A stretch of 64,000 bases of DNA from Dehalococcoidia bacterium (GTDB taxonomy: Bacteria; Chloroflexota; Dehalococcoidia; E44-bin15). Position 1 is the first letter of the stretch, and every line of letters starts with the position of its first letter. Positions 13,861 through 32,028 of this stretch are shown here, one piece after another. The notes under the pieces are model-generated. The model was not told the DNA's origin. It ran no database searches and worked only from the letters and a program-made list of their open reading frames with translations. Where the stretch lies: positions 426,164 to 490,163 of the forward strand of contig JBAZMV010000001.1 in assembly GCA_041649635.1 (NCBI GenBank). Reading direction: 5' to 3'. A program made the translations under genes and the position numbers.

Positions 13861-13863
13861 GTC

Positions 13864-13892
13864 TTGACTGCCCGGCAACTATGGAGTATATT
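13864..13892 (+). promoter_or_regulatory. Sigma70-like promoter (TTGACT-17-TATATT) for the second CAP-domain gene
   Basis: Well-spaced hexamers. Leader sequence tatggAGtaTAttatccCaatttGcat is near-identical to the leader at 13089. Confidence 0.5.
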
Positions 13893-13940
13893 ATCCCAAT
13901 TTGCATAGACGGAGCGTATGTGATCAAGAGGGACACAGCT

Positions 13941-14940: not shown

Positions 14941-14950
14941 GGGTGCAGAC

Positions 14951-15553: not shown

Positions 15554-16200
15554 TCAACCCCCTGCTATCCCTTTCTCAAAGCTGTCATTGCCACGTCCTT
15601 CCCCTTATGAATATGAGGAAGGACGTGGCAATCTCCTAGCTAGTCAACCCCCTGCTATCCCCCAATCTTGGGGGATGTAAAAAAGAGTTAGGGGACACCC
15701 CTATAACCCCGTCAGGAGAGGAATCTCCTGAATCTCTCTTCTCTTGGACTGTCATTCTGAGTCCTTGCGGAGAATGACGAAGAATCTCGGCTACGTGGTG
15801 GGTTTGCGAACCCACCCTACATGCGATCGTCGCGTAGGGGCGAATAATCATTCGCCCGTTCCGTTCGTAGGGGCATGGCGTGCCGTGCCCGTCGGATTCC
15901 CCCTCTTTTGAGAAGAGGGGGTAAGGGGGTGTTCAAAATTAATTTTCTTCCCTCTCCCTCCGCAGGGAGAGGGTCAGGGTGAGGGTATGCGCGACGCAGA
16001 TGGGATGTCGTTGGTCGATAATATACCGAACCCCCTATAGCCCCCCATACGTTTCCTTCCATAATAGGTGCTATTTAGAAGAATTCCGGATTGGAAGGGA
16101 ATATTTGAAGGTTAGGGGGACACCCCCGGTTCCCCCGGCAGAGGGAAGACCCTCTGCACACCCTCATTAACGCGCATAGACCCTCATATCATTATGCCCC
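15554..16200. repeat. Mosaic repeat block (B-half,F,B,A,F',D,C,C',H,G,B')
   Basis: Includes a 21-bp perfect direct repeat tagtcaaccccctgctatccc flanking an F module (15551-15571 and 15640-15660). Confidence 0.85.
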
Positions 16201-16260: not shown

Positions 16261-16289
16261 TTGACAAATACACGCAGGAGTGCTATAAA
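16261..16289 (+). promoter_or_regulatory. Sigma70 promoter TTGACA-17-TATAAA
   Basis: -35 at 16261-66, -10 TATAAA at 16284-89. It sits ~200 nt upstream of the CDS, implying a long leader. Confidence 0.55.
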
Positions 16290-16337
16290 TGACTAATCCT
16301 ATCTTCGTACTATGCAAAGCTGAATATGGGATGCCTG

Positions 16338-16425
16338 GCCGATAAAGGTAAACCCCGGGCGATCGGGGGGCGCAAAGCTACAGGTCTCGAGGTTGAGAGA
16401 GACGGCTGAGCTGCCGAAACAGAGT
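16338..16425 (+). ncRNA. Candidate c-di-GMP-I (GEMM) riboswitch in the 5' leader
   Basis: GGTAAACC + P1 hairpin CCCCGG-GCGA-TCGGGG (GNRA loop) + GGCGCAAAGC, then a second hairpin gcuacagGUCUC..GAGACggcugagc. This matches the GGCAAACC...GNRA...GGACGCAAAGC hallmark of GEMM-I. Confidence 0.45.
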
Positions 16426-16490
16426 CGCGAAGGCCCTTAAACATCGAGAAGGCCCTGTGATTTCTGAAGGATCTTATTCAGGGGGTGTTC

Positions 16491-17270
16491 ATGAGCGCAC
16501 AGAGAAGACATTTTCACACAAGAGTCATCTCGGCTATAGTGATTCTTATTGCCATCACGCTCGTGATGATACCCGGCATAGAGGATGAAGGCGTGGTCTA
16601 CGGTTACGGCGGCGGAGGCGGTGGCGGCGGAGGCGGAGCCCCCACCAATCAGAACTGGGGCGTGTGCATCGACGGGAACTGCGACAGAGGCAACGTCAAT
16701 TTCTGGGGCACCACCCTCGATAATTTCTGGGCCGTATCTAATGACATATCGATATACATACCCAAATACACGGACATGAAGGGCCCAGAAAACTCACGCC
16801 TCACCGGGTTCAACGCATATGAAATAGACGATCCCCCCTCTCCCCCCTCGGGCTACCAGGTGCTCGCCGCCTTCGACTTCAACCCGGACGGCGCGACCTT
16901 CGACCCGGGCATCACGATAAACATCAAGTTCGACGAGGGCGACATCCCGGCGGGAAAGACCCCGGTCATCGCATATTACAACGAGACCAAAGGCGAGTGG
17001 GAGTTCATAGAGGGCACGATACAGGACGGGCAGGCGGTCTTCACCATCACCCACTGCTCCATCTACGGCCTGCTGGTTCAGGCGGCCCCGGCCCCCACGT
17101 CCACGCCGTCGGGCGGCACCCCGACCCCGGCCCCCACGGATGACGGAGGCGGACTCGGCATAGGCGCCATCATCGGCATCGTCATCGCGGCGCTGGTGGT
17201 TCTGGCCATCGTAGTCTACATATTCCTGGGCAAGAAATACGGCTGGAAGAAGACGGGCGGGTCGGCGTAG
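16491..17270 (+). CDS. Gly-rich cell-surface protein with N-terminal signal/anchor and C-terminal TM anchor
   Basis: ATG at 16491 behind an aggggg SD. Has a G12 run, a Thr/Pro-rich linker, then GLGIGAIIGIVIAALVVLAIVVYIFLGKKYGWKK, a hydrophobic segment plus basic tail. Confidence 0.65.
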   Translation: MSAQRRHFHTRVISAIVILIAITLVMIPGIEDEGVVYGYGGGGGGGGGGAPTNQNWGVCIDGNCDRGNVNFWGTTLDNFWAVSNDISIYIPKYTDMKGPENSRLTGFNAYEIDDPPSPPSGYQVLAAFDFNPDGATFDPGITINIKFDEGDIPAGKTPVIAYYNETKGEWEFIEGTIQDGQAVFTITHCSIYGLLVQAAPAPTSTPSGGTPTPAPTDDGGGLGIGAIIGIVIAALVVLAIVVYIFLGKKYGWKKTGGSA

Positions 17271-17321
17271 TAGAAATCGTATAAAAGGCTATCTATCGGC
17301 CGGTGTTACCGGGCTTGTATT

Positions 17322-18608
17322 ATGAGGATATCAGTTATCGGCAACGGCTATGTCGGACTGGCGACGGCCGTTGGGCTCGCCGGCGACGGGCACCGGGTGG
17401 TCTGCATAGATAACAACCCCGACAAGGTCCGAATCATCAATCAGGGCGCATCGCCCGTCTACGAAAAAGGCCTCAACGAACTTGTATCCTCGTGCGTCGC
17501 GAACGGGACGCTCCGCGCCTCCGGCGATTACGGCGACGTATCGGACACCGATATCACATTCCTCTGCGTCGGCACGTACTCCCCGTCATGCAACGGCACA
17601 GATTTCACGCAGATAGAGCGGGCCGCGGAAGACGTGGGCAAGGTATTATCGAAGAAGGACGGATACCACGTGGTCGCCGTCAAGAGCACGGTGGCACCCG
17701 GCACCACCGAGCGCGTCATAATCCCCGCCCTGGAGAAGTCCTCGGGCAAAAAGATCGGCGCGGACATCGGCGCGGCGGTCAACCCCGAATTCCTTGAGGA
17801 GGGCCGGGCCGTAGACTGCTTCCTCAACCCGTACCGCGTCATCATAGGGGAATACGACGCGAGGTCCGGCGACACCGTCGAGATTCTGTACCGCGATTTC
17901 AACGCGCCCATCATACGCACCACGCCGGCCGCGGCCGAGATGATAAAGTACGCCAGCAACGCCTTCCTCTCGGCCAAGATATCCTTCATCAACGAGATAG
18001 GCAACATCTGCGGCAGGCTGGGCATAGACGTGTACGACGTGGCCGGCGCCATGGGCCACGACCCGCGCATCGGCAGAAAATTCCTCAACGCGGGGGCGGG
18101 CTTCGGCGGCTCGTGCCTGCCCAAGGACATAGAGGAGCTCATCGACACGGCGGCAAAGGCCGGATACGACGCCGGCATGCTGAAATCGATACTGGAGCTG
18201 AACCGGCAACAGCCGCTGAAGATGGTCGAGGCGGCAGAGGCCGCCGTCGGCGATCTCAAGGGCAAGACCGTGGCCGTGCTGGGACTGTCCTTCAAGCCGG
18301 GCACGGACGACATGCGCGACGCCCCGTCGCTCAGGGTCATCGCCGCCCTGCTGGACAAGGGCGCGTCGGTGCGGGCCTACGACCCAGCGGCCGTCGAGAA
18401 CGCGCGCAAGGTCATCGAGGGGCAGGTCGAATACTGCGGCAGCGCGGCGCAGGCCATCGACAATGCGGACTGCGTGCTCATCGTTACGGAATGGGATGAG
18501 TTCAAGGCGGAATCGCTATATAACGGCAAGGTGGTGATCGACGGCAGGCGCGTGCTGGATCCGCGCCGGGCCAAAGGGCTCTGCGATTACCGCGGCATAT
18601 GCTGGTAG
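17322..18608 (+). CDS. ugd: UDP-glucose 6-dehydrogenase (nucleotide-sugar dehydrogenase family)
   Basis: N-terminal VIGNGYVGL Rossmann motif and catalytic GFGGSCLPKD, 428 aa. Confidence 0.85.
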   Translation: MRISVIGNGYVGLATAVGLAGDGHRVVCIDNNPDKVRIINQGASPVYEKGLNELVSSCVANGTLRASGDYGDVSDTDITFLCVGTYSPSCNGTDFTQIERAAEDVGKVLSKKDGYHVVAVKSTVAPGTTERVIIPALEKSSGKKIGADIGAAVNPEFLEEGRAVDCFLNPYRVIIGEYDARSGDTVEILYRDFNAPIIRTTPAAAEMIKYASNAFLSAKISFINEIGNICGRLGIDVYDVAGAMGHDPRIGRKFLNAGAGFGGSCLPKDIEELIDTAAKAGYDAGMLKSILELNRQQPLKMVEAAEAAVGDLKGKTVAVLGLSFKPGTDDMRDAPSLRVIAALLDKGASVRAYDPAAVENARKVIEGQVEYCGSAAQAIDNADCVLIVTEWDEFKAESLYNGKVVIDGRRVLDPRRAKGLCDYRGICW

Positions 18609-18611
18609 AAA

Positions 18612-19000
18612 ATGTCGCTGGGCGCTAGCTGACCGAACCCCCTGTAATCCCCCATACGTTGGGGGATTTTTTATTAATATAGGGGACACCCCTATAACCC
18701 CGGCAGGAGAGTATCTCCTGCATCTCTGTCCAGAACCGTCATTCCGGCGAAGGCCGGAATCCACGTAGGGGCGAATAATCATTCGCCCATTATTCGGTGG
18801 GTTTGCGAACCCACCCTACGTTCTACGTTCGGTCATCGTGTAGAGACGTCCTTCCGCGGAAGGACGTCTCTACGGGGGCGCCCCGCCGTTCGCCCCTACA
18901 CGCTACCCACTACATGCTATATATGGTAGAATCGTTTCATAATCGTACTTCAACAATTAACGTAGATTTCGGTGGGCACAGCCCAACCTACGCAACTACT
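18612..19000. repeat. Repeat block (B,A,E,C,D modules)
   Basis: The N-terminal extension of ORF 18797 in the six-frame track is a repeat translation. Confidence 0.8.
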
Positions 19001-19024
19001 GCTAGCATGGGGGGGAACCGCATC

Positions 19025-19978
19025 ATGGAAAGCATTCTCGTCACCGGCGGCGCCGGATTCATAGGAAGCCATCTCTGCGAACGCCTGCTGTCTCAGGGCT
19101 GGTTCGTGGTGTGCCTGGACAACTTCGATCCATACTACTCACCCGACGTTAAGAGGAAGAACATCGCCAAATCCCTCAAGAACAAGCGTTTCTACCTGGA
19201 CGAGTGCGATATCAGGGATAAGGAGAGGATGTCCGGACTGTTCTCCTCGCGCAAGTTCGACGCGGTGGTGCACCTGGCGGCGCGGGCCGGCGTCAGGCCG
19301 TCGATACAGGACCCGCACATCTACCAGGACGTCAACATCGGCGGGACGATAAACCTGCTGGAGCTGTGCCGCGAGTACGATGTGAAACGCTTCATCTTCG
19401 GCTCATCGTCATCGGTATACGGGGACAATTCGGACGTGCCGTTCAAGGAGAGCTCCCCGCTGATGAAGCCCGTCTCCCCCTACGCCGCCTCCAAGCAGGC
19501 CTGCGAGCTGTTCTGCTACACCTACCACCACCTCTACGATATCCGCATCGCCTGCCTGCGCTTCTTCACCGTCTACGGCCCGCGACAGAGGCCGGACATG
19601 GCGATTCATAAGTTCACCCGCCTCATAAGCGGCGGCAACCGCGTCGAGCTCTACGGCGACGGCTCATCGAAACGCGACTACACCTACATCGACGACATCA
19701 TCGACGGGGTGCAGGCGGCCGTCGACAAGAACCCGGCTTTCGAGATAATCAACCTGGGCGGCTCGCAAACGACGGAGCTGAGACAGCTTGTATCGCTCAT
19801 CGAGAAGAGCACGGGCAAGAAGGCCCGCACCATCAAGTCGCCGGATCAGCCGGGCGACGTGCCGGTGACGTACGCGGATGTGTCGAAGGCGAAGAAGCTG
19901 CTGGGCTACAAGCCCAGGGTCAAGGTCGAGGACGGCATCCCGCTGTTCGTGAAATGGTATAAGGTGCAGAAGCGGTAA
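19025..19978 (+). CDS. NAD-dependent epimerase/dehydratase (UDP-glucuronate 4-epimerase-like, GalE family)
   Basis: VTGGAGFIGSHL and YAASKQACE (YxxxK) motifs. Adjacent to ugd. ATG at 19025 behind a ggggg SD. Confidence 0.8.
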   Translation: MESILVTGGAGFIGSHLCERLLSQGWFVVCLDNFDPYYSPDVKRKNIAKSLKNKRFYLDECDIRDKERMSGLFSSRKFDAVVHLAARAGVRPSIQDPHIYQDVNIGGTINLLELCREYDVKRFIFGSSSSVYGDNSDVPFKESSPLMKPVSPYAASKQACELFCYTYHHLYDIRIACLRFFTVYGPRQRPDMAIHKFTRLISGGNRVELYGDGSSKRDYTYIDDIIDGVQAAVDKNPAFEIINLGGSQTTELRQLVSLIEKSTGKKARTIKSPDQPGDVPVTYADVSKAKKLLGYKPRVKVEDGIPLFVKWYKVQKR

Positions 19979-19984
19979 AAGGTC

Positions 19985-20560
19985 GTTGGGCGATAGCTAA
20001 TCAACCCCCTATTATCCCCCAATCATGGGGGATTTTTTTATTAATATAGGGGACACCCCTATAACCCCGTCAGGAGACGCCGTCTCCTGTACCTCTGTAT
20101 GAAGCTAACCTCTCCCTTGAAGGGAGAGGACTACGGTGAGGGTGATAATATGCCCCGCATCTGTCATTCTGAGTCCTTCCATGATAGAGCTATTTAGAAG
20201 GATGAAGAATCTCGTCAACGCGGTGGGTTTGCGAACCCACCCTACGGACCGTCATTCCGGTGAAAACCGGAATCCATATCGGGCGAGGCAACCTCGCCCC
20301 TACTGTCATTCTGAATCCTCCTGACGAACGATGAAGAATCTCGTCTATTCACCGTTCGGTCGTCGCGTAGGGGCGAATCCTGTATTCGCCCGTTATTCTA
20401 CGTATCGTCATTCCGGCGAAGGCCGGAATCCATGGCGGGCGAGGCAACCTCGCCCCTACATGTGATGACGCTACACGCTATATGTGGTAGAATCCTTTCA
20501 TAATCGTGCCGAGCCGCTTTTCAGCGGGTATGATGACGGGGTAAAATTGTTGTAGAGGTG
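19985..20560. repeat. Mosaic repeat block (B,A,G,F',D,E,C,F',C,E,C)
   Basis: Modules as defined in the summary. Confidence 0.85.
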
Positions 20561-20567
20561 CGGGAGA

Positions 20568-20837
20568 ATGAAGGAATACACGATAATATTGAAGAAATCC
20601 GGCGACCAGTACGTGTCGCTGTGCCTTGAGCTGACAGTTGTCGGATGCGGCGATACCAGAGGGGAAGCTATAGCCAGCGTAAAGGATGCCATCGAGTCGT
20701 ATGTCGATTGCATGGGGGATGAAGCGCCGATCGACCGGCCGATATCATTGCAACTGCTTCACGATTTCCTTTCCGAGGGCGAAGCGGATTCGGGTCCTGA
20801 AGGCGCGCCCCGCCTCAAGGTGCTGGCCTATGGCTAA
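20568..20837 (+). CDS. hicB: HicB-family antitoxin (UPF0150-like, short form)
   Basis: MKEYTIILKKSGDQYVSLCLEL..GCGDTRGEAIASVKDAIE matches the HicB N-terminal domain. Confidence 0.7.
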   Translation: MKEYTIILKKSGDQYVSLCLELTVVGCGDTRGEAIASVKDAIESYVDCMGDEAPIDRPISLQLLHDFLSEGEADSGPEGAPRLKVLAYG

Positions 20838-21075
20838 CAGGGGGAAGATCCCCTCGATGTCCAGCAAGAAGCTCATCAAACTGCTGGAGCAGTCCGGGGC
20901 CTCGTTCGACCGGCAGGGAAAAGGCGACCACGCCATTTATCGCAGGGAAGTAAAGGGCAAGGTTCTCAAAGCCCCCGTCCTGCAGGGAAAGAATAACCTG
21001 CCGCCGGAATACAGCCTGGTGGTTTTCAAGCAGCTCGGCCTGACCGACGAGGAGATATCCCGCCTGCTGAGGTAG
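20830..21075 (+). CDS. hicA: HicA-family mRNA interferase toxin
   Basis: SSKKLIKLLEQSGASFDRQGKGDHAIYRR matches the HicA/YcfA fold. Its ATG overlaps the hicB stop by 8 nt. Confidence 0.7.
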   Translation: MANRGKIPSMSSKKLIKLLEQSGASFDRQGKGDHAIYRREVKGKVLKAPVLQGKNNLPPEYSLVVFKQLGLTDEEISRLLR

Positions 21076-21084
21076 AAGAGGTCG

Positions 21085-21440
21085 TTGGGCGATAGCAGAC
21101 CGAACCCCCTGTAATCCCCCATACGTTGGGGGATTTTTTTATTAATATAGGGGACACCCCTATAACCCCGTCAGGAGACGCCGTCTCCTGTACCTCTATC
21201 TAGAACCGTCATTCCGGCGAAGGCCGGAATCCATATCGCGGGCGAGAAGACCTCGCCCCTACATGTGATGACGATACACGCTATATATGGTAGAATCCTT
21301 TAATCGATATGCTGTTGAAGGTGTTCTTCACCTTCAACAATCAACGCAGGATTTCGGCGAGGTGAAGAACACCACGCCGAGCAAAGAATATCCAAACCGG
21401 ACGCCCCGCGGCTGAGGGGTTGTGCAACACGAGCCGATGA
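21085..21440. repeat. Repeat block (B,A,E,C,I modules)
   Basis: Modules as defined in the summary. Confidence 0.8.
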
Positions 21441-21468
21441 TGTATAAATGTCTTCAAGGAACTCAGAT

Positions 21469-22404
21469 ATGAAACTTTCCATAGTAATCCCCACCTACAA
21501 CGAGGAGAAGAACGTGTCGCTGCTGCACGATGAGATAAGCGCGGCGCTCAAGAATATCGACGCCGGTTACGAGATCATCTTCGTCGATGACGGCTCAACG
21601 GACGGGACCTACAGCGCGTTGAAGGAGATGCGCGGGCGCGACGGCAGGGTCAAGATCGTCAAGTTCAAGAAGAACTTCGGCCAGTCGGCGGCCATGGCCG
21701 CGGGCTTCGAGCACGCAAAAGGCGGCATCGTGGTCACCATGGACGCGGACATGCAGAACGACCCGTCGGACATACCGCTGTTGCTCGTCGAACTGGAAAA
21801 AGGTTACGACGTCGTCTGCGGCTGGCGCAAGAAGCGCAAGGATTCCATATCGAAAAAGCTGTTCTCACGGTTTGCCAACCTGCTGCGCAGGAAACTTACC
21901 GGGGCCACGATACACGACTCCGGATGCAGCCTGCGCGCCTACAGGAAGGAGTGCCTCAAGTCGCTGGAGCTCTACGGCGAGATGCACCGCTACATTCCGG
22001 CCATGCTGTCATGGAAGGGCTACAGGATAGGCGAGGTGCGCACCAACCACAGGCCGCGCGCCCACGGCAGGACCAAGTACGGCTACCAAAGGCTTATCAA
22101 GGGCTTCCTCGATCTGATACTGATCCTGTTCTGGCAGAAGTACTCCATGCGCCCCATCCACCTGCTGGGCGGGTCCGGGATAGTGCTGGCTATCATCGGC
22201 GTGCTGCTCGGCCTCTACCTGGGCATAGAGAGGCTGGCCTTCGGCACTCCACTTGGCGACCGTCCTCTGTTCATGCTGGCGATACTGATGATAATCGTGG
22301 GCATCCAGTTCCTGGTCTTCGGCGTGCTGGCCGATATACTGGTGCGCATATACTACGGGCAGGGCGAGCGTAAATACTATACCGTCGAAGAGGTGCTGGA
22401 ATAA
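21469..22404 (+). CDS. GT2 polyprenyl-phosphate glycosyltransferase (GtrB/DPM1/ArnC-like)
   Basis: LSIVIPTYNEE, DDGSTD and DAD motifs, plus two C-terminal TM helices. Confidence 0.85.
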   Translation: MKLSIVIPTYNEEKNVSLLHDEISAALKNIDAGYEIIFVDDGSTDGTYSALKEMRGRDGRVKIVKFKKNFGQSAAMAAGFEHAKGGIVVTMDADMQNDPSDIPLLLVELEKGYDVVCGWRKKRKDSISKKLFSRFANLLRRKLTGATIHDSGCSLRAYRKECLKSLELYGEMHRYIPAMLSWKGYRIGEVRTNHRPRAHGRTKYGYQRLIKGFLDLILILFWQKYSMRPIHLLGGSGIVLAIIGVLLGLYLGIERLAFGTPLGDRPLFMLAILMIIVGIQFLVFGVLADILVRIYYGQGERKYYTVEEVLE

Positions 22405-22412
22405 AAGTCCTG

Positions 22413-23525
22413 ATGCTCAACTACGAGTATCCTCCTCTGGGCGGCGGGGCGGCCAACGCCTGCAAGTACATACTGGGCGAGCTGGCGCGGAAACAGATAG
22501 AAGTAGACCTGGTCACATCCGCGGCTAACGACAAATTCGAACAGGAGAAGATCGGCGATACGGTAACGCTGTACAAGCTGCCCGTAAACAAGAAGGACAT
22601 CCACTACTGGACGCAGAAGGAAATCCTGTCGTATACGCTTAAAGCGACTAAATTCATGCGGCGGCTGATGAAGGACAACCATTACGATGTGTGCCACGCC
22701 TTCTTCGGCATCCCGTGCGGCGCGATGGCTTACCTGTTCAAGAGACGTCTGTCTTATATCGTCTCCCTCAGGGGCTCGGACGTGCCCGGATTCAACAAGC
22801 GCTTCTCCGCCGAGTACGTTGTGCTGAAACCGATAATCAAAGAGGTGTGGAGAAGGTCCGCGTCGGTGGTAGCCAACAGCCAGGGCTTGAAGGAGCTGGC
22901 GCTGCGTTCAGACCCGAAGCGGAATATAGATATCATCTACAACGGCATAGACACGGCGCAGTTCATACCAGGCAGCGGCGGCGGGGATAAGGTAAAAATC
23001 CTCTGCGTGTCGCGGCTGATCGGACGCAAGGGCATCAGCCACCTGATAGAGAGCGCGCCCATCATCAAAGAGAAATACAATGGAAAATTTGAGATATCGA
23101 TAGTGGGCGAGGGCAACCTGGAGCAGGAGCTGCGCGCCCTGTCCGCGAGCCTGGGCGCGGACGACGTGGTTTCCTTTGCCGGGTACGTGGAGCATAGTAA
23201 ACTGCCGGAGATATACGCGGGCTCGGATATTTTCATACTGCCCTCCATGAACGAGGGCATGTCCAACACGGTGCTTGAGGCCATGGCCTGCGGCCTGCCC
23301 ATCATCACAACGGACACGGGCGGCACGCGGGAGCTGATAAAGGATAACGGCATAGTATTGAGCGAGGTTAGCGGCGCTGCCATAGCCGATGCGGTACTGC
23401 GCCTGATGACGGATGATAAGGCGCGGCGGGAGATGGGACGCAAGTCAAGGGAGTTAGCGGAGGGTTTGAGCTGGGAGAAGGTTGCGGAGAGCTATTTGAG
23501 GATGTATGAAACCATCAAACTTTAG
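22413..23525 (+). CDS. GT4 family glycosyltransferase
   Basis: EYPPLGGG N-terminal motif and EGMSNTVLEAMACGLPIITTDTGG (E-x7-E) C-terminal motif. Confidence 0.85.
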   Translation: MLNYEYPPLGGGAANACKYILGELARKQIEVDLVTSAANDKFEQEKIGDTVTLYKLPVNKKDIHYWTQKEILSYTLKATKFMRRLMKDNHYDVCHAFFGIPCGAMAYLFKRRLSYIVSLRGSDVPGFNKRFSAEYVVLKPIIKEVWRRSASVVANSQGLKELALRSDPKRNIDIIYNGIDTAQFIPGSGGGDKVKILCVSRLIGRKGISHLIESAPIIKEKYNGKFEISIVGEGNLEQELRALSASLGADDVVSFAGYVEHSKLPEIYAGSDIFILPSMNEGMSNTVLEAMACGLPIITTDTGGTRELIKDNGIVLSEVSGAAIADAVLRLMTDDKARREMGRKSRELAEGLSWEKVAESYLRMYETIKL

Positions 23526-23557
23526 TGAATATCCAATATTAAATATGACGGAATGGC

Positions 23558-24343
23558 GTGGTAATGCGGTTTCAGTTTGGTAAAAATTGGCAGTCTTTTT
23601 CCCGGAGCGCCCTGAATGAAGATAAGATAAATCAGGCGAGAAATGATTTTCTTGCACTCTTCTCAGACATTGACTTAAAGGGGAAGCGCTTCTTTGACAT
23701 AGGCTTTGGCCAGGGCCTCACTTTGCTGCTTGCCGGGGAGGCTGGAGCCAATGTTTACGGAATAGATATAGATGCGGATAACCTGTCCGCTCTGAGCGAA
23801 ACGAAGAAATTCTTTCCTGCCATCGAGATGCCTGATACGGAAGTTGTTTCAATACTGGATAACAATTTCATCGAGAGGCAGATCAAGTCCGGCGGATATG
23901 ATGTAGTGCATTCCTGGGGGGTGCTGCATCATACCGGCAATATGGAACAAGCTATCAAGAATGCGACTAAGCTGACGAAAGACCGGGGGTTCCTGATTAT
24001 ATCCATCTATAATAAACACTGGTCTTCCCCGCTCTGGCGCTGCATAAAGTGGACTTATAATAAGGCTCCCAATGTAATGCGGTGTGCGATGCTCAGGGCA
24101 TTGTATCCCATAGTCTACACGGCGAAGTGGTGTGTTACGCGGCGAAATCCGAAAAAGCATAAGCGCGGCATGGATTTCTGGCATAATCTGGTTGATTGGG
24201 TAGGAGGGTATCCTTACGAGTACGCAACGCCGCAGGCGGTACAGAAATCCGTTTGTGACCTGGGTTTCACAGTTGTGAAATACACTCCCGCGGCTGTTCC
24301 GACCGGCTGCAACGAGTTTGTATTTCAGAAGAAGGCTTCCTGA
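23558..24343 (+). CDS. Class I SAM-dependent methyltransferase
   Basis: FDIGFGQGL SAM-binding motif I, 261 aa. Confidence 0.7.
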   Translation: MVMRFQFGKNWQSFSRSALNEDKINQARNDFLALFSDIDLKGKRFFDIGFGQGLTLLLAGEAGANVYGIDIDADNLSALSETKKFFPAIEMPDTEVVSILDNNFIERQIKSGGYDVVHSWGVLHHTGNMEQAIKNATKLTKDRGFLIISIYNKHWSSPLWRCIKWTYNKAPNVMRCAMLRALYPIVYTAKWCVTRRNPKKHKRGMDFWHNLVDWVGGYPYEYATPQAVQKSVCDLGFTVVKYTPAAVPTGCNEFVFQKKAS

Positions 24344-26263
24344 ATGTGCGGGATATGCGGGCAGTTCATATTCAACGGCATAGCGCCGTCCGATATTGCT
24401 GCTACGAGCAACATGTGCTCGGTTCTGAAGCATCGCGGCCCGGATGACGAGGGTTTTTACAACGACGGCTTTATTTCGCTGGGTCATAGGCGACTGAGCA
24501 TCATAGATATAGAGGGCGGCCATCAGCCTATAAGCAATGAGGATGGAACGGTCTGGGTTATAACCAATGGCGAAATCTACAATTTTAAAGAGTTGCGAAA
24601 TGCTCTTGAGAAAAGCGGCCATGTTTTTTCCAGCAGGAGCGACAGCGAAGTTCTCGTTCACTTATATGAAGAGCAAGGACGCGCTTTGGTTAAAGAACTG
24701 CGGGGAATGTTCGCCTTCGCTATCTGGGATTCACGTAATAAGACTCTGCTTCTTGGAAGGGATAGATTAGGTAAGAAGCCTCTGTTCTATGCTTATAACC
24801 AAGAGCGTTTTCTGTTCGCATCAGAGCTCAAAGCTCTACTGCAAGAGCCAAGTATTAAACATGAAGTGAACTTAACTTCCCTGCACCACTTTCTGACGCT
24901 GCAATGGGTGCCCGGCCCCCAGACCATTATTCAGGGCGTTAACCAGCTACAGGCAGGCCATACTCTTGTCTGCTCCAACGGGCAGGTGAAAATAGAAAGA
25001 TACTGGGAACCGGAGTTCCTTCCCAAAAACAAGCTGTCAAAAGACGAAGCCCTGGAAGCCACGCAGTCATTGTTGGAAGAGGCGGTCAAGTTACGCCTGG
25101 TGAGCGATGTTCCCCTGGGAGCCTTCCTGAGCGGCGGGCTTGATTCTAGCTTGATCGTAGCCCTGATGGCGCGGGCAACGGATAAAAAGGTTAAGACCTT
25201 CTCCGTGGGGTTTACGGAAGAAGCCTTCAGCGAGTTAGAACATGCGCGTGCAGTTGCCAAATACTTTGATACCGAACACGAAGAGATATTTGTTAAGCCG
25301 GATATCATAGCATTGCTTCCCAAGCTCATATGGCATCTTGACCAACCTTTAGCCGACCCTGCCGCAATTCCAACATATTATCTATCGGAGTCTACAAGAA
25401 GGCATGTTACCGTAGCCCTCAATGGCGATGGCGGAGACGAAACCTTTGCAGGCTATCAGCGCTATTTTGCCGACGGTATAGCCGATGCTTATGCTGTTGT
25501 GCCTGCAGCAGTAAGAAATAAGCTCATTCTTCCTGTGTTGAGGAGGTTTACCGGCGTTTCGGATAAGCCCGTTGATACCGATGTTTGGGGTGCCGTAATA
25601 CGCATGCATCAGGCGGCTGATATTGCGCAGGAAGCCAGTATCATCAGGTGGGGTTCATATTTCAACTCCGACATGAAAGATGATATTTATAGTGATGAGC
25701 TGCGCAATACTCTGCGGAATACGGACTCCGTAGAACTGCTGCGTGAGACTTTCCGCCGCGCAGAAAATCATGCGGATAACAGGTTGGACAAGACACTGTA
25801 TGTTGATATGATGAACTATCTCCCCGACGACCTTCTGGTCAAGATTGACCGGATGTGCATGGCTAACTCATTAGAAGGGAGGTCGCCGTTTCTGGATCAA
25901 AAATTTGTGGAGTTTGCCTGCCGCATGCCAATAGAATTTAAGGATAAGAGAACGACTACAAAATACCTGCTGCGGGAACTGGCGAAAAAGATAATCCCTC
26001 AGGATATTGCCGCGCGGCGCAAGCACGGTTTCTCGGTTCCCATTGGAAGCTGGATCCGGTCGGAACTGAGAGATATGACATATGAAACATTGCTGAGCCC
26101 ACAGGCATTGAGCAGAGGCTATTTCAAGCAGCAAGCGCTTGAAAATCTTCTGGACGAACATTGTGCAAAAAAGGCTGACCATGGAAAGCGGATATGGGCA
26201 TTGCTTTGCCTGGAATTATGGCATCAAGTTGTTATAGATTATACAAAAATACCGATGAGTTAA
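24344..26263 (+). CDS. asnB: Asparagine synthase (glutamine-hydrolysing) family amidotransferase, glycan-cluster type
   Basis: N-terminal MCGI Cys nucleophile, SGGLDSS PP-loop motif, 639 aa. Confidence 0.85.
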   Translation: MCGICGQFIFNGIAPSDIAATSNMCSVLKHRGPDDEGFYNDGFISLGHRRLSIIDIEGGHQPISNEDGTVWVITNGEIYNFKELRNALEKSGHVFSSRSDSEVLVHLYEEQGRALVKELRGMFAFAIWDSRNKTLLLGRDRLGKKPLFYAYNQERFLFASELKALLQEPSIKHEVNLTSLHHFLTLQWVPGPQTIIQGVNQLQAGHTLVCSNGQVKIERYWEPEFLPKNKLSKDEALEATQSLLEEAVKLRLVSDVPLGAFLSGGLDSSLIVALMARATDKKVKTFSVGFTEEAFSELEHARAVAKYFDTEHEEIFVKPDIIALLPKLIWHLDQPLADPAAIPTYYLSESTRRHVTVALNGDGGDETFAGYQRYFADGIADAYAVVPAAVRNKLILPVLRRFTGVSDKPVDTDVWGAVIRMHQAADIAQEASIIRWGSYFNSDMKDDIYSDELRNTLRNTDSVELLRETFRRAENHADNRLDKTLYVDMMNYLPDDLLVKIDRMCMANSLEGRSPFLDQKFVEFACRMPIEFKDKRTTTKYLLRELAKKIIPQDIAARRKHGFSVPIGSWIRSELRDMTYETLLSPQALSRGYFKQQALENLLDEHCAKKADHGKRIWALLCLELWHQVVIDYTKIPMS

Positions 26264-26375
26264 CTAATCTAGAGGAGGTATAGGTATTAGTTCTCTTATA
26301 TCGCACTTAATTAAGCCTAAACGACATTCAAGAACAGGGAAAATAAATGTACTCCACGTAATAGATCATCTTGGA

Positions 26376-27491
26376 TTGGGCGGAGCACAGACACTGTTAT
26401 TGGATTTGTTAAAGGATTGGGACAGCGAAAAATACAGAGTATATGTCTGCGCTTTAAAGAAGCCAGGGGTATTGGATAAGCAAGCGAAAGCTCAGGGTTT
26501 AAACGTAAGTTATTTTGACAGACAGAAGTATGATCCCAGAAAGATTCTTGACCTGATCAGATTCATCAGGAAGAATAAGATTCAAATAGTTCACACGCAT
26601 CTGCTTGGCGCGGGCATTATTGGGCGGATTGCCGCAACTATTTGCCAAGTGCCAGTTGTGATTGTGCACGACCATAGCGGGTTCCCAATGTTGAGCAATA
26701 TCCCTACAGTATATTCGCGTCTTCTACGTATGATGGATAAACCACTGACGTATGTTACTGATAGAGTTATTGCAGTATCGTATTCAGTGAAAGAGCGGCG
26801 TATTAAAAGGGGATTACCAGATAAAAATAAGGTTGTTGTTATCCACAATGGTATAGATATAAATAAATTCAATAGTGATCTTTATGACAATGACAAAATC
26901 AGAGAGACTATGTCTATCGGTGCATCGGATGTAGTTATAGGGGCTGTTGGGCGTTTAAGTCCTGAGAAGGGGCTTGATTTTCTACTTGAGGCTGCGTCAA
27001 AGATTTATAGTAAATATACGGAAGCTAAGTTGGTCATAATTGGCGATGGGCCATGCAGAAATATGTTAGAGCAACAAACCATCGACCTGGGGATAAGTGA
27101 GAAGGTCATTTTCACCGGATTCAGAGATGATGTTCCCGAATTGTTATCGGCGATGGACATATTTGTTTCATCGTCGCTTTTTGAAGCGTTTCCGATGGTT
27201 ATACTAGAGGCAATGTCAATGTCCAAACCGGTGGTTGCTACAAATGTGGGGGGTATTCCAGAGATGATAATACCCGGTGTGACAGGTTTTATAGTGCCGC
27301 CAGGTGATTCAGAGGCTTTATATACAGCTATTATTCAATTGTTGGATGATCCGGACAGAAGGATAACGTTTGGTCAAAATGGGCGGCAACGTATTGAAGA
27401 GTTTTTTACAACGCAAGTCATAGTGAATAAACTAGTAGAGTTATATGATGAACTTGTAGGTTGTAAATTAAATAAGGCACATCTTGAATGA
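26376..27491 (+). CDS. GT4 family glycosyltransferase (true start probably upstream, non-canonical)
   Basis: GGAQ motif and EAFPMVILEAMSMSKPVVATNVGG. The conserved first beta-strand VLHVIDHLGLGGAQ lies in-frame upstream of the first TTG (26376). There is no ATG/GTG/TTG back to the in-frame stop at 26265. A GAGGAGG SD at 26272-78 sits 7 nt before an ATT at 26286. Confidence 0.7.
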   Translation: MGGAQTLLLDLLKDWDSEKYRVYVCALKKPGVLDKQAKAQGLNVSYFDRQKYDPRKILDLIRFIRKNKIQIVHTHLLGAGIIGRIAATICQVPVVIVHDHSGFPMLSNIPTVYSRLLRMMDKPLTYVTDRVIAVSYSVKERRIKRGLPDKNKVVVIHNGIDINKFNSDLYDNDKIRETMSIGASDVVIGAVGRLSPEKGLDFLLEAASKIYSKYTEAKLVIIGDGPCRNMLEQQTIDLGISEKVIFTGFRDDVPELLSAMDIFVSSSLFEAFPMVILEAMSMSKPVVATNVGGIPEMIIPGVTGFIVPPGDSEALYTAIIQLLDDPDRRITFGQNGRQRIEEFFTTQVIVNKLVELYDELVGCKLNKAHLE

Positions 27492-27506
27492 TGATGGAGA
27501 TCAAAT

Positions 27507-28730
27507 TTGAAAACTAATCTTCAAATAATTTCTAGGTTGCTATTAAATCTTCTGTTGTATAGTTTGTCTTATATAACTCCCAAAAATGAAGAATTGATAT
27601 TATTGGGGTCCGGCAAAGGGGGTTCCTTTAAAGGAAATCCGAAATATTTATATCTCTATGCCAATCGTGAAAGGGAGGTTAAGAACCGTTTCCAGTTTGT
27701 GTGGATTACTCAGAATAGAACCATACTTAAAAAACTCAAGGATGAGGGGTATCCAGTCGTTGATAAGTATAGTTTGAAAGGTTTTTGGACCATATTAAGG
27801 TCCAGTAATTTAGTTATAGAGCAATCCGCTAAAGATGTCAGCTATTTAGGTGTGCTTAACGGAAGGTTTAACATTATTCAAACTTGGCACGGAACCTTAT
27901 TTAAGAAAGTTGCTTTTGACGCCAAAAAAGTAGATCAAGAGAAAACATTGTTGACTCGAATATTCGATTATTTTCTTAATAAAGAATTTAATAATTACAT
28001 ATTCATTTGTTCTGCATCGGAGGAGACCTCTAGTAAGTTGATCCCAGCATTCAGAAATAATAATGTAGTGATTACCGGTTATCCGAGGAATGATATATTT
28101 TATTCCAATGAGATATCGTTTAACGATGTATTCAAAATCCTATCCCTAGGTTCTTATGAAAGGGTTGTAGTGTATGCTCCGACTTTTAGAGAAATCGCAA
28201 CATGTAAAGGCCCGTTTTCGGATACATTACTAGTTAGATTGAATAGTTTCCTAGCGGACAATAATTACATAATGCTGATTAAGAAACATCCTTTTGAAAA
28301 GGTATTGGTATCTATAACGGGATACTCTAATATCAAAGACGTGTCTAAAGAAGTTGATGATGTACAGGAACTATTAGCATATACGGACATTCTTATCACT
28401 GATTATTCAAGTGTTTATTTCGACTATTCGTTAACTGATAAACCAATTATCTATTACCCTTATGACTATAAAGGATATTTAAAGAACTGCCGGGAATTCT
28501 ATTATGACTATTATGAAGAGCAACCCGGGCCGTTCGCACACACTGAAGAGGAGCTATTAGTATTGCTTAAAGATATCAATGACTGGTTTAATGATGAAGG
28601 ATACAGAATTAAATATAGAAATTTTAAGAACAAATACAATCACTTTCAAGATGGTAATAGTTCTGAAAGGACTTATCAGATAATTATCGATCTTCTGAAT
28701 TCAAGAAAATCTGCAGGAAAGTTAGAGTAA
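27507..28730 (+). CDS. CDP-glycerol/CDP-alcohol poly(polyol-phosphate) phosphotransferase family (TagB/TagF-like)
   Basis: ILITDYSSVYFDY signature of the TagF family. TTG start behind a ggaga SD. Very AT-rich (~30% GC). Confidence 0.7.
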   Translation: MKTNLQIISRLLLNLLLYSLSYITPKNEELILLGSGKGGSFKGNPKYLYLYANREREVKNRFQFVWITQNRTILKKLKDEGYPVVDKYSLKGFWTILRSSNLVIEQSAKDVSYLGVLNGRFNIIQTWHGTLFKKVAFDAKKVDQEKTLLTRIFDYFLNKEFNNYIFICSASEETSSKLIPAFRNNNVVITGYPRNDIFYSNEISFNDVFKILSLGSYERVVVYAPTFREIATCKGPFSDTLLVRLNSFLADNNYIMLIKKHPFEKVLVSITGYSNIKDVSKEVDDVQELLAYTDILITDYSSVYFDYSLTDKPIIYYPYDYKGYLKNCREFYYDYYEEQPGPFAHTEEELLVLLKDINDWFNDEGYRIKYRNFKNKYNHFQDGNSSERTYQIIIDLLNSRKSAGKLE

Positions 28731-28735
28731 CGGCA

Positions 28736-29260
28736 ATGAGACAAAGAGTAATGGACTTATTGATGGCAACTAAGTTTTTAGAAGTTACTGAAATCAAAGC
28801 GTCACAACTAGCCTTTGAGGAGAGAGTACACCTGAACTGTTTTCACTGTATACGTTATGGTGTGAACTGGACCTGCCCTCCAAAAATTCCACAAGTAGAC
28901 TATCAAAAGCTCATTTGTGAATATGAAAACCTACTGTTAGTTTACTGCAAAATGCCGTTGACAGCCGATAAATTTGAAGTCGTTAGAAGGACGTCAACTA
29001 ACACTCTTCACCATGCTTTGCTTGCCGCCGAGAAGCTATTATGGGAATCAAACTATCCGCTGGCCATTTCTTTTATGGGGGGTTCATGTAAACTTTGCCC
29101 CGAAGGTTGTGATGAACTTGCCTGCCGGCATCCTGATAAAGCAAGAATTCCTCTGGAAGGAATCGGGGTAAACGTAGTAAAATCAGCTGAGAATGTTGGA
29201 TTAAATATTGTTTTCCCACCTGTGGATTACATGTTCCGGGTAGGATTACTAGGATGGTGA
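28736..29260 (+). CDS. Cys-rich hypothetical protein (putative metal-binding, possibly DUF2284-like)
   Basis: CFHC...C and CKLCPEGCDELAC clusters. AT-rich. Confidence 0.5.
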   Translation: MRQRVMDLLMATKFLEVTEIKASQLAFEERVHLNCFHCIRYGVNWTCPPKIPQVDYQKLICEYENLLLVYCKMPLTADKFEVVRRTSTNTLHHALLAAEKLLWESNYPLAISFMGGSCKLCPEGCDELACRHPDKARIPLEGIGVNVVKSAENVGLNIVFPPVDYMFRVGLLGW

Positions 29261-29263
29261 GAA

Positions 29264-29980
29264 ATGAAAGTGATTATCCTCGCTGCAGGTTTGGGAACAA
29301 GACTTAGACCACTGACCACAAATATACCCAAGTGCCTTTTTAAATTAAGTAAGGATCAGACTATCATTGGCAGAATGGTAAACATCATTAAGAAAATTTC
29401 AGATTCTCCTGTTTACGTTGTTACCGGTTTTATGCATGAAAAAATAGAGGGTCAACTGGCAGGCGTGGAATTTGTTCATAACCCTTTCTACCGTGTAACC
29501 AATAGTATCGTATCTCTTTGGTTTGCCCGTGAACATCTCGATGATGATGTGATCATCATTAATTCTGATATAGTCATACAAGCCCCAATATTCGAAGAGG
29601 TTTTGAAAATTGAACATCCCGCCGCAGTATTGATAGATTCATCCAAAGCGCGCACTGCAGATTACAAGGTAGCCACCTATAATGATAGGGTTATCATGAT
29701 GAGTAAAGAACTTACTGCTAATTCCGGTGAATACGTTGGTATCACCAAACTTTCCAGGGCAGCAGCAGGCAGTCTAAAACAAAAAATTGAAGAAATGGTT
29801 AAAAATGATCAGATAGACGAGTGGTACGAGAATGCATTGGTGAACATGATACTCGATGATGATTTTGACCTGAATTATGTTGACGTCTCGCATCTGCAGT
29901 GGGTTGAAATTGACACAGTAGATGATCTCTTAATGGCCAGAAAAATATGTGATATGGAAAGAAGTGGTAATGACGTTTAA
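29264..29980 (+). CDS. Sugar/alcohol-phosphate nucleotidyltransferase (LicC-like cytidylyltransferase family)
   Basis: MKVIILAAGLGTRLRPLT NTP-transferase signature. 238 aa, like LicC. Confidence 0.75.
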   Translation: MKVIILAAGLGTRLRPLTTNIPKCLFKLSKDQTIIGRMVNIIKKISDSPVYVVTGFMHEKIEGQLAGVEFVHNPFYRVTNSIVSLWFAREHLDDDVIIINSDIVIQAPIFEEVLKIEHPAAVLIDSSKARTADYKVATYNDRVIMMSKELTANSGEYVGITKLSRAAAGSLKQKIEEMVKNDQIDEWYENALVNMILDDDFDLNYVDVSHLQWVEIDTVDDLLMARKICDMERSGNDV

Positions 29981-30650
29981 TGTCGCCTTGGTCACAGGAG
30001 CTACCGGCGGAATAGGTAGCGCTATCAGTGAAGAATTAAGAACCAGCGGGTTTCGGCTCGCTCTTCTCAGTCGGAGCATTTCTTGTCATGAATCCGAGAG
30101 CATGCTGGCACAACGTTGTGATGTTACTAAGGTAGATGAAGTGGAAAAAGCCGTTACCGCTACTTTGAAAAAATTCGGCAACATTGATGTTGTAATCAAT
30201 TGTGCTGGCAGGAGTCATCTTGGTACAGTAGATGAACTCACAGAACAAGATATACAGGCTGTATACGACGTTAATGTCAAAGGAACAATCAATGTCTGTA
30301 AAGCGGTTTTACCATGTATGAAGAAACAGAAGTCAGGTTATATTATCAATATCGGGTCATTGCGCGGTATTGAATACGGCGTTGGTAAGTCTGCATATTC
30401 AATGAGTAAATCTGCTGTAATTGCTTTTTCCAATGTCTTAGCTATGGAAACCGCCGAGTACGGAATAAAAGTTACCGTGATTAATCCGGGCTTTGTCCAG
30501 ACCAGCCTGATAAGGCATAGGATAGCTGAAGAAAAACTCAGGGCTGAAGATCTTACTCAGCCTGGTGATATTGCCAAAGTCGTGTTGTTCCTTCTCGAAT
30601 TGTCTCCAGGCGCCAGTATTGTTGAGTTAAATATTGGGCGTTTATGGTAA
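29970..30650 (+). CDS. SDR family oxidoreductase
   Basis: TGATGGIGS and YSMSK (YxxxK) motifs. Overlaps the upstream gene by 11 nt. Confidence 0.8.
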   Translation: MTFNVALVTGATGGIGSAISEELRTSGFRLALLSRSISCHESESMLAQRCDVTKVDEVEKAVTATLKKFGNIDVVINCAGRSHLGTVDELTEQDIQAVYDVNVKGTINVCKAVLPCMKKQKSGYIINIGSLRGIEYGVGKSAYSMSKSAVIAFSNVLAMETAEYGIKVTVINPGFVQTSLIRHRIAEEKLRAEDLTQPGDIAKVVLFLLELSPGASIVELNIGRLW

Positions 30651-30741
30651 TGCGGTTTCAAAACATGAAAACTTAACCGCGCAGCTCACTGCAGACACAT
30701 ATTTTCAGCAAGAACTTATAGAGTTTCGCAAAGACGAATGA

Positions 30742-32028
30742 ATGATCAAACGCTTTTATGATTTAACCAAGTATAAGCTTGCAACGATTGTTTCCGCGAA
30801 ACTGATAAAGGAAACTGCTTGGAGCTTCTTGGCGCAAGGCTCTGCCTTTATTTTTTTCATAGGGCTCAATCTTTTTCTCGCCCGTTACCTTGGCCCGGAC
30901 CGCTTCGGTGAATGGTCTTTCTTCTTTTCCATCTTAAGCATAGTCCTTCTTGTTTCATATTTAGGCATTAACGCGTCAGCCCGCAAGTTTATCGCTCAGC
31001 ATAATGAGACGGCTGAATTGAAGGCTGTATTGCGCTCCTCGGTTAAACTGAGGGTCATCCTAAGCCTGGTTTTTGCCCTGGTTATGCTGTCTTTAAGCAA
31101 GCCTCTGGCCGTCTGGCTGGATCGCCCAAGCTTTGAGGTTTTGTTCTATGCCGCCGCCCCGCTAGTATTCTTTGCCAGCCTAGTTGAATATCTGAAAAAT
31201 GCTTTTCAAGGGCTGCACCGCCTGAAATATGACTTCTATATAAATCTGTCTGAATACGGACTCAAGCTTTTACTGGCTGTTTGCTTTTTGCTCATTCTTA
31301 ACGAGATTATTGGGTTGGTTTTCGCCTTTAACCTGGCTTTTATCGTTACAACGGTATTGGGTTTTTACTTTCTTTACCGCCATTTCTATAAGAACCGGCC
31401 GGATTCAGGGACTGATTACACCAGACAGCTATTGCAATACAGCCTGCCGCTGTTCGTTATCAGCATCGGCTTTCTAATTGCTACTGAAATAGATACTGTA
31501 ATGATAGGTATTCTAAGCACGGATTACGAGGTGGGTATATACGCGGTGGCCAAGCAGATAATCATCAAGCTGCCGCATATCGCCTTGGTGATATCGCTGG
31601 GCACCATGCCGCTGTTTGCCAAGTTGAATCAGGATAATAAAGAGTATCTGAAAGCACTGTTCTACCGGTTGTTGAAAATCAACACGGTGATATTTGGCTC
31701 GATCATTATATTAATACTAGCTGCGGGTTGGTATTTCATCCCTTTGATATTTGGCGCAGAATATAAGGACTCAGTCTTGCCCCTGGTTATACTGATACCA
31801 TATTTGATTATTTATTCTTATTCAATATTCCTGTCTTCCTTCCTCGACTACCGGGGCAAGGCTAGAAAAAGGGCCATTAACTTGATTATCGCGTTATTAC
31901 TAAACCTTGGACTGAATCTGGTTCTAATTCCAAGATACGGAGCAGTAGGTGCGGCAATTGCCACCTCTGTTTCCTATTTCCCGTATTTAGTGCTGAATTG
32001 GCTTGAAGTAAGAAAAAGCTTCCAATAG
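30742..32028 (+). CDS. Polysaccharide biosynthesis protein / Wzx-like flippase (MOP superfamily)
   Basis: 428 aa, ~12 predicted TM segments, and located within the glycan cluster. Confidence 0.7.
   Translation: MIKRFYDLTKYKLATIVSAKLIKETAWSFLAQGSAFIFFIGLNLFLARYLGPDRFGEWSFFFSILSIVLLVSYLGINASARKFIAQHNETAELKAVLRSSVKLRVILSLVFALVMLSLSKPLAVWLDRPSFEVLFYAAAPLVFFASLVEYLKNAFQGLHRLKYDFYINLSEYGLKLLLAVCFLLILNEIIGLVFAFNLAFIVTTVLGFYFLYRHFYKNRPDSGTDYTRQLLQYSLPLFVISIGFLIATEIDTVMIGILSTDYEVGIYAVAKQIIIKLPHIALVISLGTMPLFAKLNQDNKEYLKALFYRLLKINTVIFGSIIILILAAGWYFIPLIFGAEYKDSVLPLVILIPYLIIYSYSIFLSSFLDYRGKARKRAINLIIALLLNLGLNLVLIPRYGAVGAAIATSVSYFPYLVLNWLEVRKSFQ

Follow-up and report, generated by a model that had tools for sequence, protein, structure and literature searches.

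In the Vc2 prototype of the class I riboswitches for c-di-GMP (cyclic di-GMP), known as GEMM-I, G20 contacts one guanine of the ligand, C92 forms a Watson-Crick pair with the second guanine and A47 stacks between both (PMC4744006, PMC5888326). A C44-G83 pair has been described as universally conserved in GEMM-I, a spacing of 27 nucleotides (nt) between G20 and A47 is found in both Vc2 and Vc1, and Vc1, which precedes gbpA, provides an example of an ON switch in which expression rises with c-di-GMP (PMC4744006). GEMM RNAs carry an AAA linker between their two hairpins, and the second hairpin contains a tetraloop receptor only when the first ends in a GAAA loop, a GYRA loop going with the receptor-less form (PMC1950547). 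Here we analysed a stretch of 64,000 nt from a Dehalococcoidia bacterium (contig JBAZMV010000001.1, positions 426,164 to 490,163), referred to below as the window, in which a leader of about 195 nt lies 5' of an ATG at 16491 (+). Judged from its sequence, an element in this leader very probably acts as a c-di-GMP-sensing cis-regulator of the downstream surface-protein gene. The element is an ordinary class I c-di-GMP riboswitch, a known class found directly by Rfam, and the output direction of its expression platform is less settled.

Using cmscan on the whole window against all 4227 Rfam families, we obtained a full-length match to the c-di-GMP-I clan (CL00126) at 16338-16419 (+), with 63.4 bits against a gathering score of 59 and E = 1.3e-12. 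The same match was recovered from the 321-nt leader alone with E = 6.4e-15, and it spans model positions 1-80 of 80 of RF03167. The initial annotation had proposed a GEMM-I riboswitch from a set of hairpin strings, a linker and a second imperfect hairpin in the leader, all of which occur where it placed them. Its assignment is borne out by the clan match above the gathering score, by a covarying fold and by canonical ligand-contact nucleotides; of the two families it had named for the search, RF01051 belongs to the matched clan but was not the top model, which was RF03167, and RF01786 (c-di-GMP-II) matched nowhere in the window at its gathering score and, up to E = 10, nowhere in the leader. 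The parts of the aptamer, in window coordinates, are:

16338..16419 (+): c-di-GMP-I (GEMM-I) aptamer, from cmscan, the pair list and covariation
16340-16341 with 16415-16416 (+): P1, from the pair list
16347 (+): G equivalent to Vc2 G20, G in 12/12 leaders
16347-16354 (+): GGUAAACC of the first hairpin region, read in the sequence
16348-16373 (+): first hairpin, with GCGA tetraloop
16353-16358 with 16363-16368 (+): stem CCCCGG / UCGGGG of the first hairpin, with loop GCGA at 16359-16362
16369-16378 (+): linker GGCGCAAAGC, read in the sequence
16371..16405 (+): C16371 and G16405, equivalent to the Vc2 C44-G83 inter-hairpin bridge by mapping to Vc2
16374 (+): A equivalent to Vc2 A47, A in 12/12 leaders
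16374-16376 (+): AAA linker joining the two hairpins
16376-16412 (+): second hairpin, 16376-16388 pairing with 16399-16412
16414 (+): C equivalent to Vc2 C92, C in 12/12 leaders

The GCGA loop is of the GYRA kind and is accompanied by a short, regular second hairpin, as in receptor-less GEMM-I RNAs. The five key positions read G, A, C, C and G in 12 of 12 leaders. In the window their spacings equal those of Vc2 (27 nt from position 20 to 47, 3 nt from 44 to 47 and 9 nt from 83 to 92), and the binding pocket reads as the canonical G-A-C type. The pair equivalent to C44-G83 is C-G in all 14 sequences compared; as it never varies, it counts as conservation and not as covariation. Sensing of cyclic GMP-AMP (3'3'-cGAMP) or another cyclic dinucleotide instead of c-di-GMP has to be weighed at this point, since GEMM-Ib RNAs share the GEMM-I fold and are matched by the same models (PMC7266159, PMC5888326). 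This is very unlikely for the present element, whose position-20 equivalent is G in the window (G16347) and in every one of the 12 leaders. The cGAMP-selective members reported in 2015 by Kellenberger and by Nelson are said to have A at that position.

The 259-amino-acid protein encoded downstream has about 22 orthologues (53-98% identity), one of them from a metagenome-assembled genome (MAG) named Dehalococcoidia by NCBI. Each of the 8 related loci that extend far enough upstream carries the aptamer ahead of the orthologue. Across 14 aligned aptamers, 97.0% of cells are paired in the GEMM-I structure, compared with 31-45% in slid controls. Nine pairs have changed on both sides, and none of 500 shuffles reached this result; the shuffle control overstates significance because the aligned sequences are related, and it agrees with the slid controls and with an independent RNAalifold run that recovered both aptamer hairpins. 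P1 follows the same pattern in locus L011, where, from our reading of the alignment, it gains a C-G pair through changes on both strands. The fold is backed by these compensatory changes and compatible with the covariance structure that the initial annotation had asked of it. A chance resemblance or a decayed, non-functional relic could be suspected from a score only 4 bits over the RF03167 cut-off, but the E-value of 1e-12, the compensatory changes kept in relatives whose downstream protein is 53-85% identical and the invariant pocket nucleotides leave that reading a probability next to nil.

The best-scoring model, RF03167 (c-di-GMP-I-GGC), invites the reading that the aptamer is a true GGC variant with a changed pocket and possibly another ligand, and the score of 63.4 bits against 59 speaks for it. 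The three letters of the name, reportedly defined by Weinberg et al. in PNAS in 2017, are said to denote positions 20, 47 and 92; the printed RF03167 consensus agrees with this meaning, the literature that we found naming c-di-GMP-I-GGC lists the variant without a definition, and a 2017 NAR paper makes no mention of it. At model position 37 that consensus has a conserved G, whereas the window has A16374, the canonical A47, shared by 12 of 12 leaders. We examined this position further with a pattern scan over genomes that allowed A or G at position 47: 127 of the 128 matches from other genomes, which come from many phyla, have A. The sole match with G (L128) does not seem aptamer-like. RF03167 was also the best model for 17 of 20 compact A47 aptamers with a short second hairpin, with scores of up to 77 bits; these were drawn from Solirubrobacterales, Planctomycetota, Chloroflexota, Omnitrophota and a Deltaproteobacteria (HK-STAS-MYXO-11) MAG (loci L028-L093). 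Closer to the window, it was best for six aptamers in orthologous loci L003-L016 (five orthologues and the paralogue in L016 described below). Near-identical orthologous aptamers are reported either as RF03167 (59.7-67.7 bits) or, once they fall below 59, as RF01051 (53.5-54.2 bits, cut-off 35); the RF01051 score of the window aptamer is inferred from these orthologues, as clan competition suppresses two lower-scoring matches there. Because A47 aptamers score best on RF03167 so regularly, the model is not specific for the substitution: by these comparisons it recognises the compact, receptor-less architecture and not A47G or an altered ligand specificity, and a true GGC variant is highly improbable here. 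Database labels reading 'GGC variant' may be widely misleading, with many ordinary c-di-GMP riboswitches probably mislabelled; a best match to RF03167 carries no meaning for ligand specificity, and the defining nucleotide must be read.

The element sits in a leader whose promoter and first transcribed nucleotides are also conserved. The features upstream of the aptamer are:

16261..16289 (+): sigma-70-type promoter, -35 TTGACA at 16261-16266, 17-nt spacer, -10 TATAAA at 16284-16289
16296..16332 (+): conserved 5' leader element, potential 5'-proximal stem-loop, near-invariant columns in the alignment of orthologous leaders

The good sigma70 promoter claimed by the initial annotation is present, and its -35 box, spacing and -10 box (TATAA followed by A or C) are kept in 12 of 12 orthologous leaders; a consensus promoter scan has no entry for the box pair at 16261-16289 because it demands T at the last -10 position, where the box has A. 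Transcription is predicted to start near 16296. Promoter (16261-16289), aptamer (16338-16419) and ATG (16491) follow one another on the plus strand, an arrangement found in all orthologous loci. The first ~40 nt of the leader (alignment columns ~8-45) are almost invariant among the orthologues, beyond the needs of a plain stem-loop. The 5' element reads AUCCUAU ... AUAUGGGAU in the window and forms a perfect inverted repeat, CACUAU-N10-AUAGUG, in most relatives; the 5'-proximal stem-loop is present in minimum-energy folds. Its CUGAAUA is complementary to a UAUUCAG just 5' of the ribosome-binding site, a long-range pairing seen in the folds of several orthologues. The element could be a stabilising 5' hairpin or an operator for a DNA-binding protein.

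Downstream of the aptamer, all leaders follow a common layout: CAGAG, a hairpin whose upper stem is AGGCCUUU/AAAGGCCU and whose lower stem varies, UUUCUG, a near-invariant spacer (G)GAUCUUAUUC, the Shine-Dalgarno (SD) sequence AGGGGG and, after 5-9 nt, AUG or GUG. The corresponding parts of the window are:

16420..16466 (+): platform hairpin, folding in 13/13 leaders, with covariation
16420-16424 (+): CAGAG, 5' base of the platform hairpin, complementary to UUUCUG
within 16420-16466 (+): lower stem UCGC:GUGA of the platform, with compensatory changes
16431-16438 with 16449-16456 (+): upper stem of the platform, AGGCCCUU with AAGGCCCU, from the fold
16461-16466 (+): pyrimidine tract UUUCUG, 3' base of the hairpin, invariant columns
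between UUUCUG and SD, within 16461..16485 (+): conserved spacer GAAGGAUCUUAUUC, invariant columns
16480-16485 (+): Shine-Dalgarno AGGGGG, invariant columns

The segment from CAGAG to UUUCUG folds into one long hairpin in 13 of 13 leaders (-12.7 to -23.4 kcal/mol), with 94.6% of cells paired, where slid controls give 33-57%. Compensatory changes occur at two pairs of the lower stem, which is UCGC:GUGA in the window, UUGC:GUAA in L006 and UUAU:AUAA in L146. Both UUUCUG and, in the window, CCCUG at 16453-16457 are complementary to CAGGGGG, and RNAalifold pairs UUCUGGG with UUCAGGG. The C of UUUCUG is invariant, L010 having AUUCUG, a conservation that would be expected if pairing, and not a U-tract, were under selection.

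We assessed how the aptamer might act on this hairpin by folding nascent transcripts that end before the 3' arm. In 8 of 11 leaders the 5' arm (GGCCUUU) then pairs mainly with AAAGGY of the junction J1/2, where G20 and the foot of the first hairpin lie; a bound aptamer excludes this pairing. The J1/2-to-arm duplex reaches about -14 kcal/mol in one clade, and the L011 junction has a G-to-A change for which a C-to-U change in the arm compensates, its own partner outperforming all swapped partners. When the anti-hairpin state was forced in full leaders, SD accessibility did not exceed that of the bound state in 10 of 11 and was clearly lower in five, which amounts to a trend only; the SD partner was the released 3' arm or UUUCUG in six. 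For the window, the SD is predicted to pair mainly with the 3' arm of the hairpin. Here each arm has an extra C, which produces a C·C mismatch that weakens the hairpin and also creates CCCUG, perfectly complementary to CAGGG of the SD. Other connections were considered and rejected. Equilibrium folding of free against bound leaders was discarded as a guide to switch direction for want of a consistent SD effect. An extension of P1 (CCUG with CAG of CAGAG) as a link between aptamer and hairpin has, on our reading of the alignment, a mismatch in L003 and L010 and lacks compensating changes in L009 and L022, and pairing of the 3' strand of the second hairpin (GGCUGAGC) with GCUCAGG upstream of the platform hairpin occurs in some leaders only.

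The mechanism that we tentatively prefer, at somewhat less than an even chance, is a relay acting on translation, with c-di-GMP exposing the SD and turning expression on. In the absence of the ligand, the 5' arm of the platform hairpin would be held by the unfixed junction AAAGGY, including G20, and the freed 3' arm with its UUUCUG tail (CCCUG...UUUCUG in the window) would pair with CAGGGGG and mask the SD. In its presence the junction would be locked in the pocket, the hairpin would close from CAGAG to UUUCUG, the SD would be released and translation of the surface protein would rise. The aptamer and the platform hairpin are observed features, and it is the steps of competition between them that we infer. 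Translational activation fits the way in which UUUCUG is conserved as if for pairing, the conservation of the spacer, the CCCUG of the window and the usual biology, c-di-GMP commonly switching on adhesins and exopolysaccharide.

Several results weigh against this explanation of the leader. Pairing of UUUCUG with the SD is possible in 96.7% of cells, but the columns are invariant and of low complexity, and a slide by one column still pairs 81%. The J1/2-to-arm pairing of the window is weak (-4.8 kcal/mol), and the modelled accessibility of its SD is 0.16 in every state, which predicts masking throughout. Equilibrium folds of full leaders, free or constrained to the aptamer, show no consistent change at the SD, with the hairpin present in both. 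From our reading of the alignment, P1 does not run on unbroken into CAGAG in the two closest relatives of the window. Finally, no GGDEF, EAL or HD-GYP domain was found among the 27 open reading frames (ORFs) scanned in the window.

The same platform can be read as an attenuator, its hairpin being a weak intrinsic terminator at which polymerase stops at UUUCU when c-di-GMP is bound, turning the operon off; J1/2 would hold the 5' arm as an antiterminator without ligand, and with c-di-GMP the hairpin would form during transcription. The hairpin lies directly after the aptamer and is the most stable local structure. As it forms at equilibrium whatever the state of the aptamer, the J1/2 competitor would matter only kinetically, which suits termination, and the pairing of J1/2 with the arm is predicted in nascent transcripts (the 8 of 11 leaders above). 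An intrinsic terminator consists of a G+C-rich hairpin followed directly by a run of four or more U (PMC1950547). The platform has the hairpin but is followed by the tail UUUCUGAA. In 13 of 13 leaders the U-tract is just UUUCU (AUUCU in L010), 4 of the first 8 nt past the stem being U, and a terminator scan returned no site on the plus strand. The hairpin is thus unconvincing as an intrinsic terminator. The conserved C and the complementary CAGAG indicate pairing and not U-richness, the 25 nt from hairpin to SD are almost invariant, which a pure terminator leaves unexplained, and turning off an adhesin and glycan operon is the less common logic for c-di-GMP. Attenuation is accordingly unlikely in our estimate, and the remaining probability goes to other mechanisms, such as Rho, RNases or a role of the conserved 5' element.

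A further point in favour of attenuation comes from a second GEMM-I riboswitch of the lineage, found on the contig that also carries orthologue L006:

L016, region ~470-200, aptamer 384-295 (-): paralogous GEMM-I riboswitch with canonical A47, scored as RF03167

The paralogue shares with the studied element the TTGACA-type promoter, the A47 aptamer and a similar platform stem directly after the aptamer. It ends in a true intrinsic terminator, AGCCUUUCU-GUAUA-AGAAGGGCU followed by U7, whereas the studied element has UUUCUG, the conserved spacer and the SD. Because the paralogue combines a similar stem with a true U7, the platform studied here may descend from a terminator that was converted to translational control. 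Folding of the paralogue leader was uninformative on its switching logic. The paralogue precedes a small gene for a MerR/excisionase-like helix-turn-helix protein, which suggests that c-di-GMP also controls a transcription factor in this lineage.

The gene controlled by the proposed relay encodes a protein without significant matches in Pfam and NCBIfam; its structure was considered from an AlphaFold model:

16491..17270 (+): first regulated gene, 259 amino acids, with an N-terminal hydrophobic helix, Gly run, beta domain, linker and transmembrane helix

The model has a mean predicted local distance difference test (pLDDT) of 76.9, with values above 90 for residues ~55-197, and shows a helix at the N terminus, then a Gly run and an all-beta domain, then a Pro/Thr-rich linker and, at the C terminus, a transmembrane helix; both the Gly run and the linker are disordered. 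The protein had initially been described as a signal-peptide protein with a poly-Gly stretch and a C-terminal anchor, in agreement with the N-terminal hydrophobic helix, the Gly run and the C-terminal transmembrane helix with its basic tail found here. The predicted beta domain is ZU5/GAIN-like, and Foldseek agrees with this assignment. An H-C-S motif, with His188 invariant and Cys189 and Ser190 nearly so (H-F-T in the two most divergent orthologues), sits in the turn between the last two strands, the site of self-cleavage in GAIN (HL↓T) and PIDD/Nup98 (HF↓S) domains. From the modelled fold, the product of the first regulated gene may be a bacterial surface protein of the self-cleaving, ZU5/GAIN-like type. 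Because ZU5-superfamily autopeptidases in bacterial surface proteins have already been described (PMC3482391), it would belong to a kind already known.

The riboswitch stands at the head of a same-strand block (16491-32028) in which the surface-protein gene is followed by a glycan cluster:

17322..32028 (+): cell-surface glycan cluster, from Pfam scans and conserved gene order
20568-21075, between the epimerase and GT2 genes: HicB-like antitoxin ORF and HicA-toxin-family ORF (PF07927 in the identical locus L001), flanked by repeats

The cluster encodes a UDP-glucose 6-dehydrogenase, an NAD-dependent epimerase, glycosyltransferases of families 2 (GT2) and 4 (GT4), a methyltransferase, an asparagine synthase, a further GT4, a CDP-glycerol glycerophosphotransferase, a nucleotidyltransferase, a short-chain dehydrogenase and a Wzx-type flippase. 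The order of leader, surface protein, UDP-glucose dehydrogenase, epimerase and glycosyltransferases is kept in relatives. The cluster may be co-regulated with the surface protein, the operon probably continuing into it; co-transcription would have to span the whole block, which the HicA/HicB-like pair and repeat-filled gaps interrupt. This pair is absent at the same position in the relatives L019 and P0011's contig. Just past the block, on the opposite strand, lie PMT-family glycosyltransferases. Short interspersed repeats fill the intergenic regions at 12200-16200, 18610-19000, 19980-20510 and 21075-21340; they fall into at least 20 families of 25-190 nt (e.g., ATATAGGGGACACCCCTATAACCCCGTCAGGAGA, CGTCATTCCGGCGAAGGCCGGAATCC and GGTGGGTTTGCGAACCCACCCTAC), many of them hairpin-forming and modular, may be REP- or MITE-like and give rise to spurious 'MIIRPY...' ORFs.

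The most far-reaching reading has two points: a three-partner relay running from J1/2 to the 5' arm of the hairpin, then to the 3' arm with UUUCUG and finally to the SD, derived from a terminator-type platform, and a ZU5/GAIN-like self-cleaving surface protein made with its own glycosylation machinery under c-di-GMP control. That this reading holds is rather doubtful.

Further features of the window are:

2158-10095 (-): hybrid histidine kinase of 2645 amino acids, with at least 10 PAS domains, GAF, HisKA/HATPase and a receiver
10243-12102 (-): typA/bipA, adjoining the 2645-amino-acid kinase
13046-13597 and 13881-14351, upstream of the riboswitch: two tandem paralogous CAP-superfamily (PF00188) genes, ~70% identical in DNA over blocks of 170-190 nt
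14951-15553, after the CAP-superfamily genes: DUF5671 membrane protein
44315-44579 (-): large (Bacillus-type) signal recognition particle (SRP) RNA, Rfam, 199 bits
50992-51073 and 53508-53580 (-): two tRNA genes, one with a long variable arm

The large SRP RNA and the two tRNAs are the only Rfam matches in the window besides the aptamer, and the former is consistent with a Chloroflexota origin. In relatives, too, the CAP-superfamily and DUF5671 genes are found next to the riboswitch locus. The multi-PAS kinase gave a Diguanyl_cycl_sensor match, which was rejected as a cyclase, since it overlaps PAS repeats and is not a cyclase domain.

To our knowledge, little is known about surface biology and second-messenger control in uncultured Dehalococcoidia-type Chloroflexota, and our literature search on c-di-GMP riboswitches in Dehalococcoidia returned nothing specific. 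The locus connects c-di-GMP signalling in this group with a surface protein, conserved but uncharacterised, and with a glycan cluster, and its compact platform allows a comparison of termination-type with translation-type control between paralogues of related genomes. Worth keeping from this analysis are the warning on the RF03167 label, the conserved platform and the link of c-di-GMP to the ZU5/GAIN-like surface protein and its glycan cluster.

In comparison with the described systems, the element shares with the Vc2 prototype of Vibrio cholerae (RF01051) a P1 and two hairpins with AAA between them, the first hairpin ending in a GNRA-family tetraloop, the contacts of G20, A47 and C92, the C44-G83 bridge and identical spacings. 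It differs from Vc2 in a P1 of merely 2-3 pairs in the Rfam register and in a compact second hairpin that goes with the GCGA loop and lacks the 11-nt tetraloop receptor, a form known since 2007 (PMC1950547). RF03167 resembles the window in compact architecture, in the sequence of the second hairpin (GGUCU...AGAC.GCC..GCUGCC) and in giving the top covariance-model score, but has a consensus G at the position of its middle letter, where the window and its orthologues have A, making the window G-A-C and not G-G-C. In many GEMM RNAs the terminator and the 3' side of the second hairpin overlap (PMC1950547), whereas the platform hairpin of the window shares no nucleotides with the aptamer. Vc1 differs in its unrelated downstream gene, its platform and its phylum, and the reported expression response belongs to Vc1, the window being known from its sequence. 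Like the window, Vc1 before gbpA of Vibrio cholerae combines the GEMM-I contacts with a surface or adhesion protein downstream (PMC4744006), and placement in the 5' leader of a surface- or adhesion-related operon is shared with GEMM-I (RF01051).

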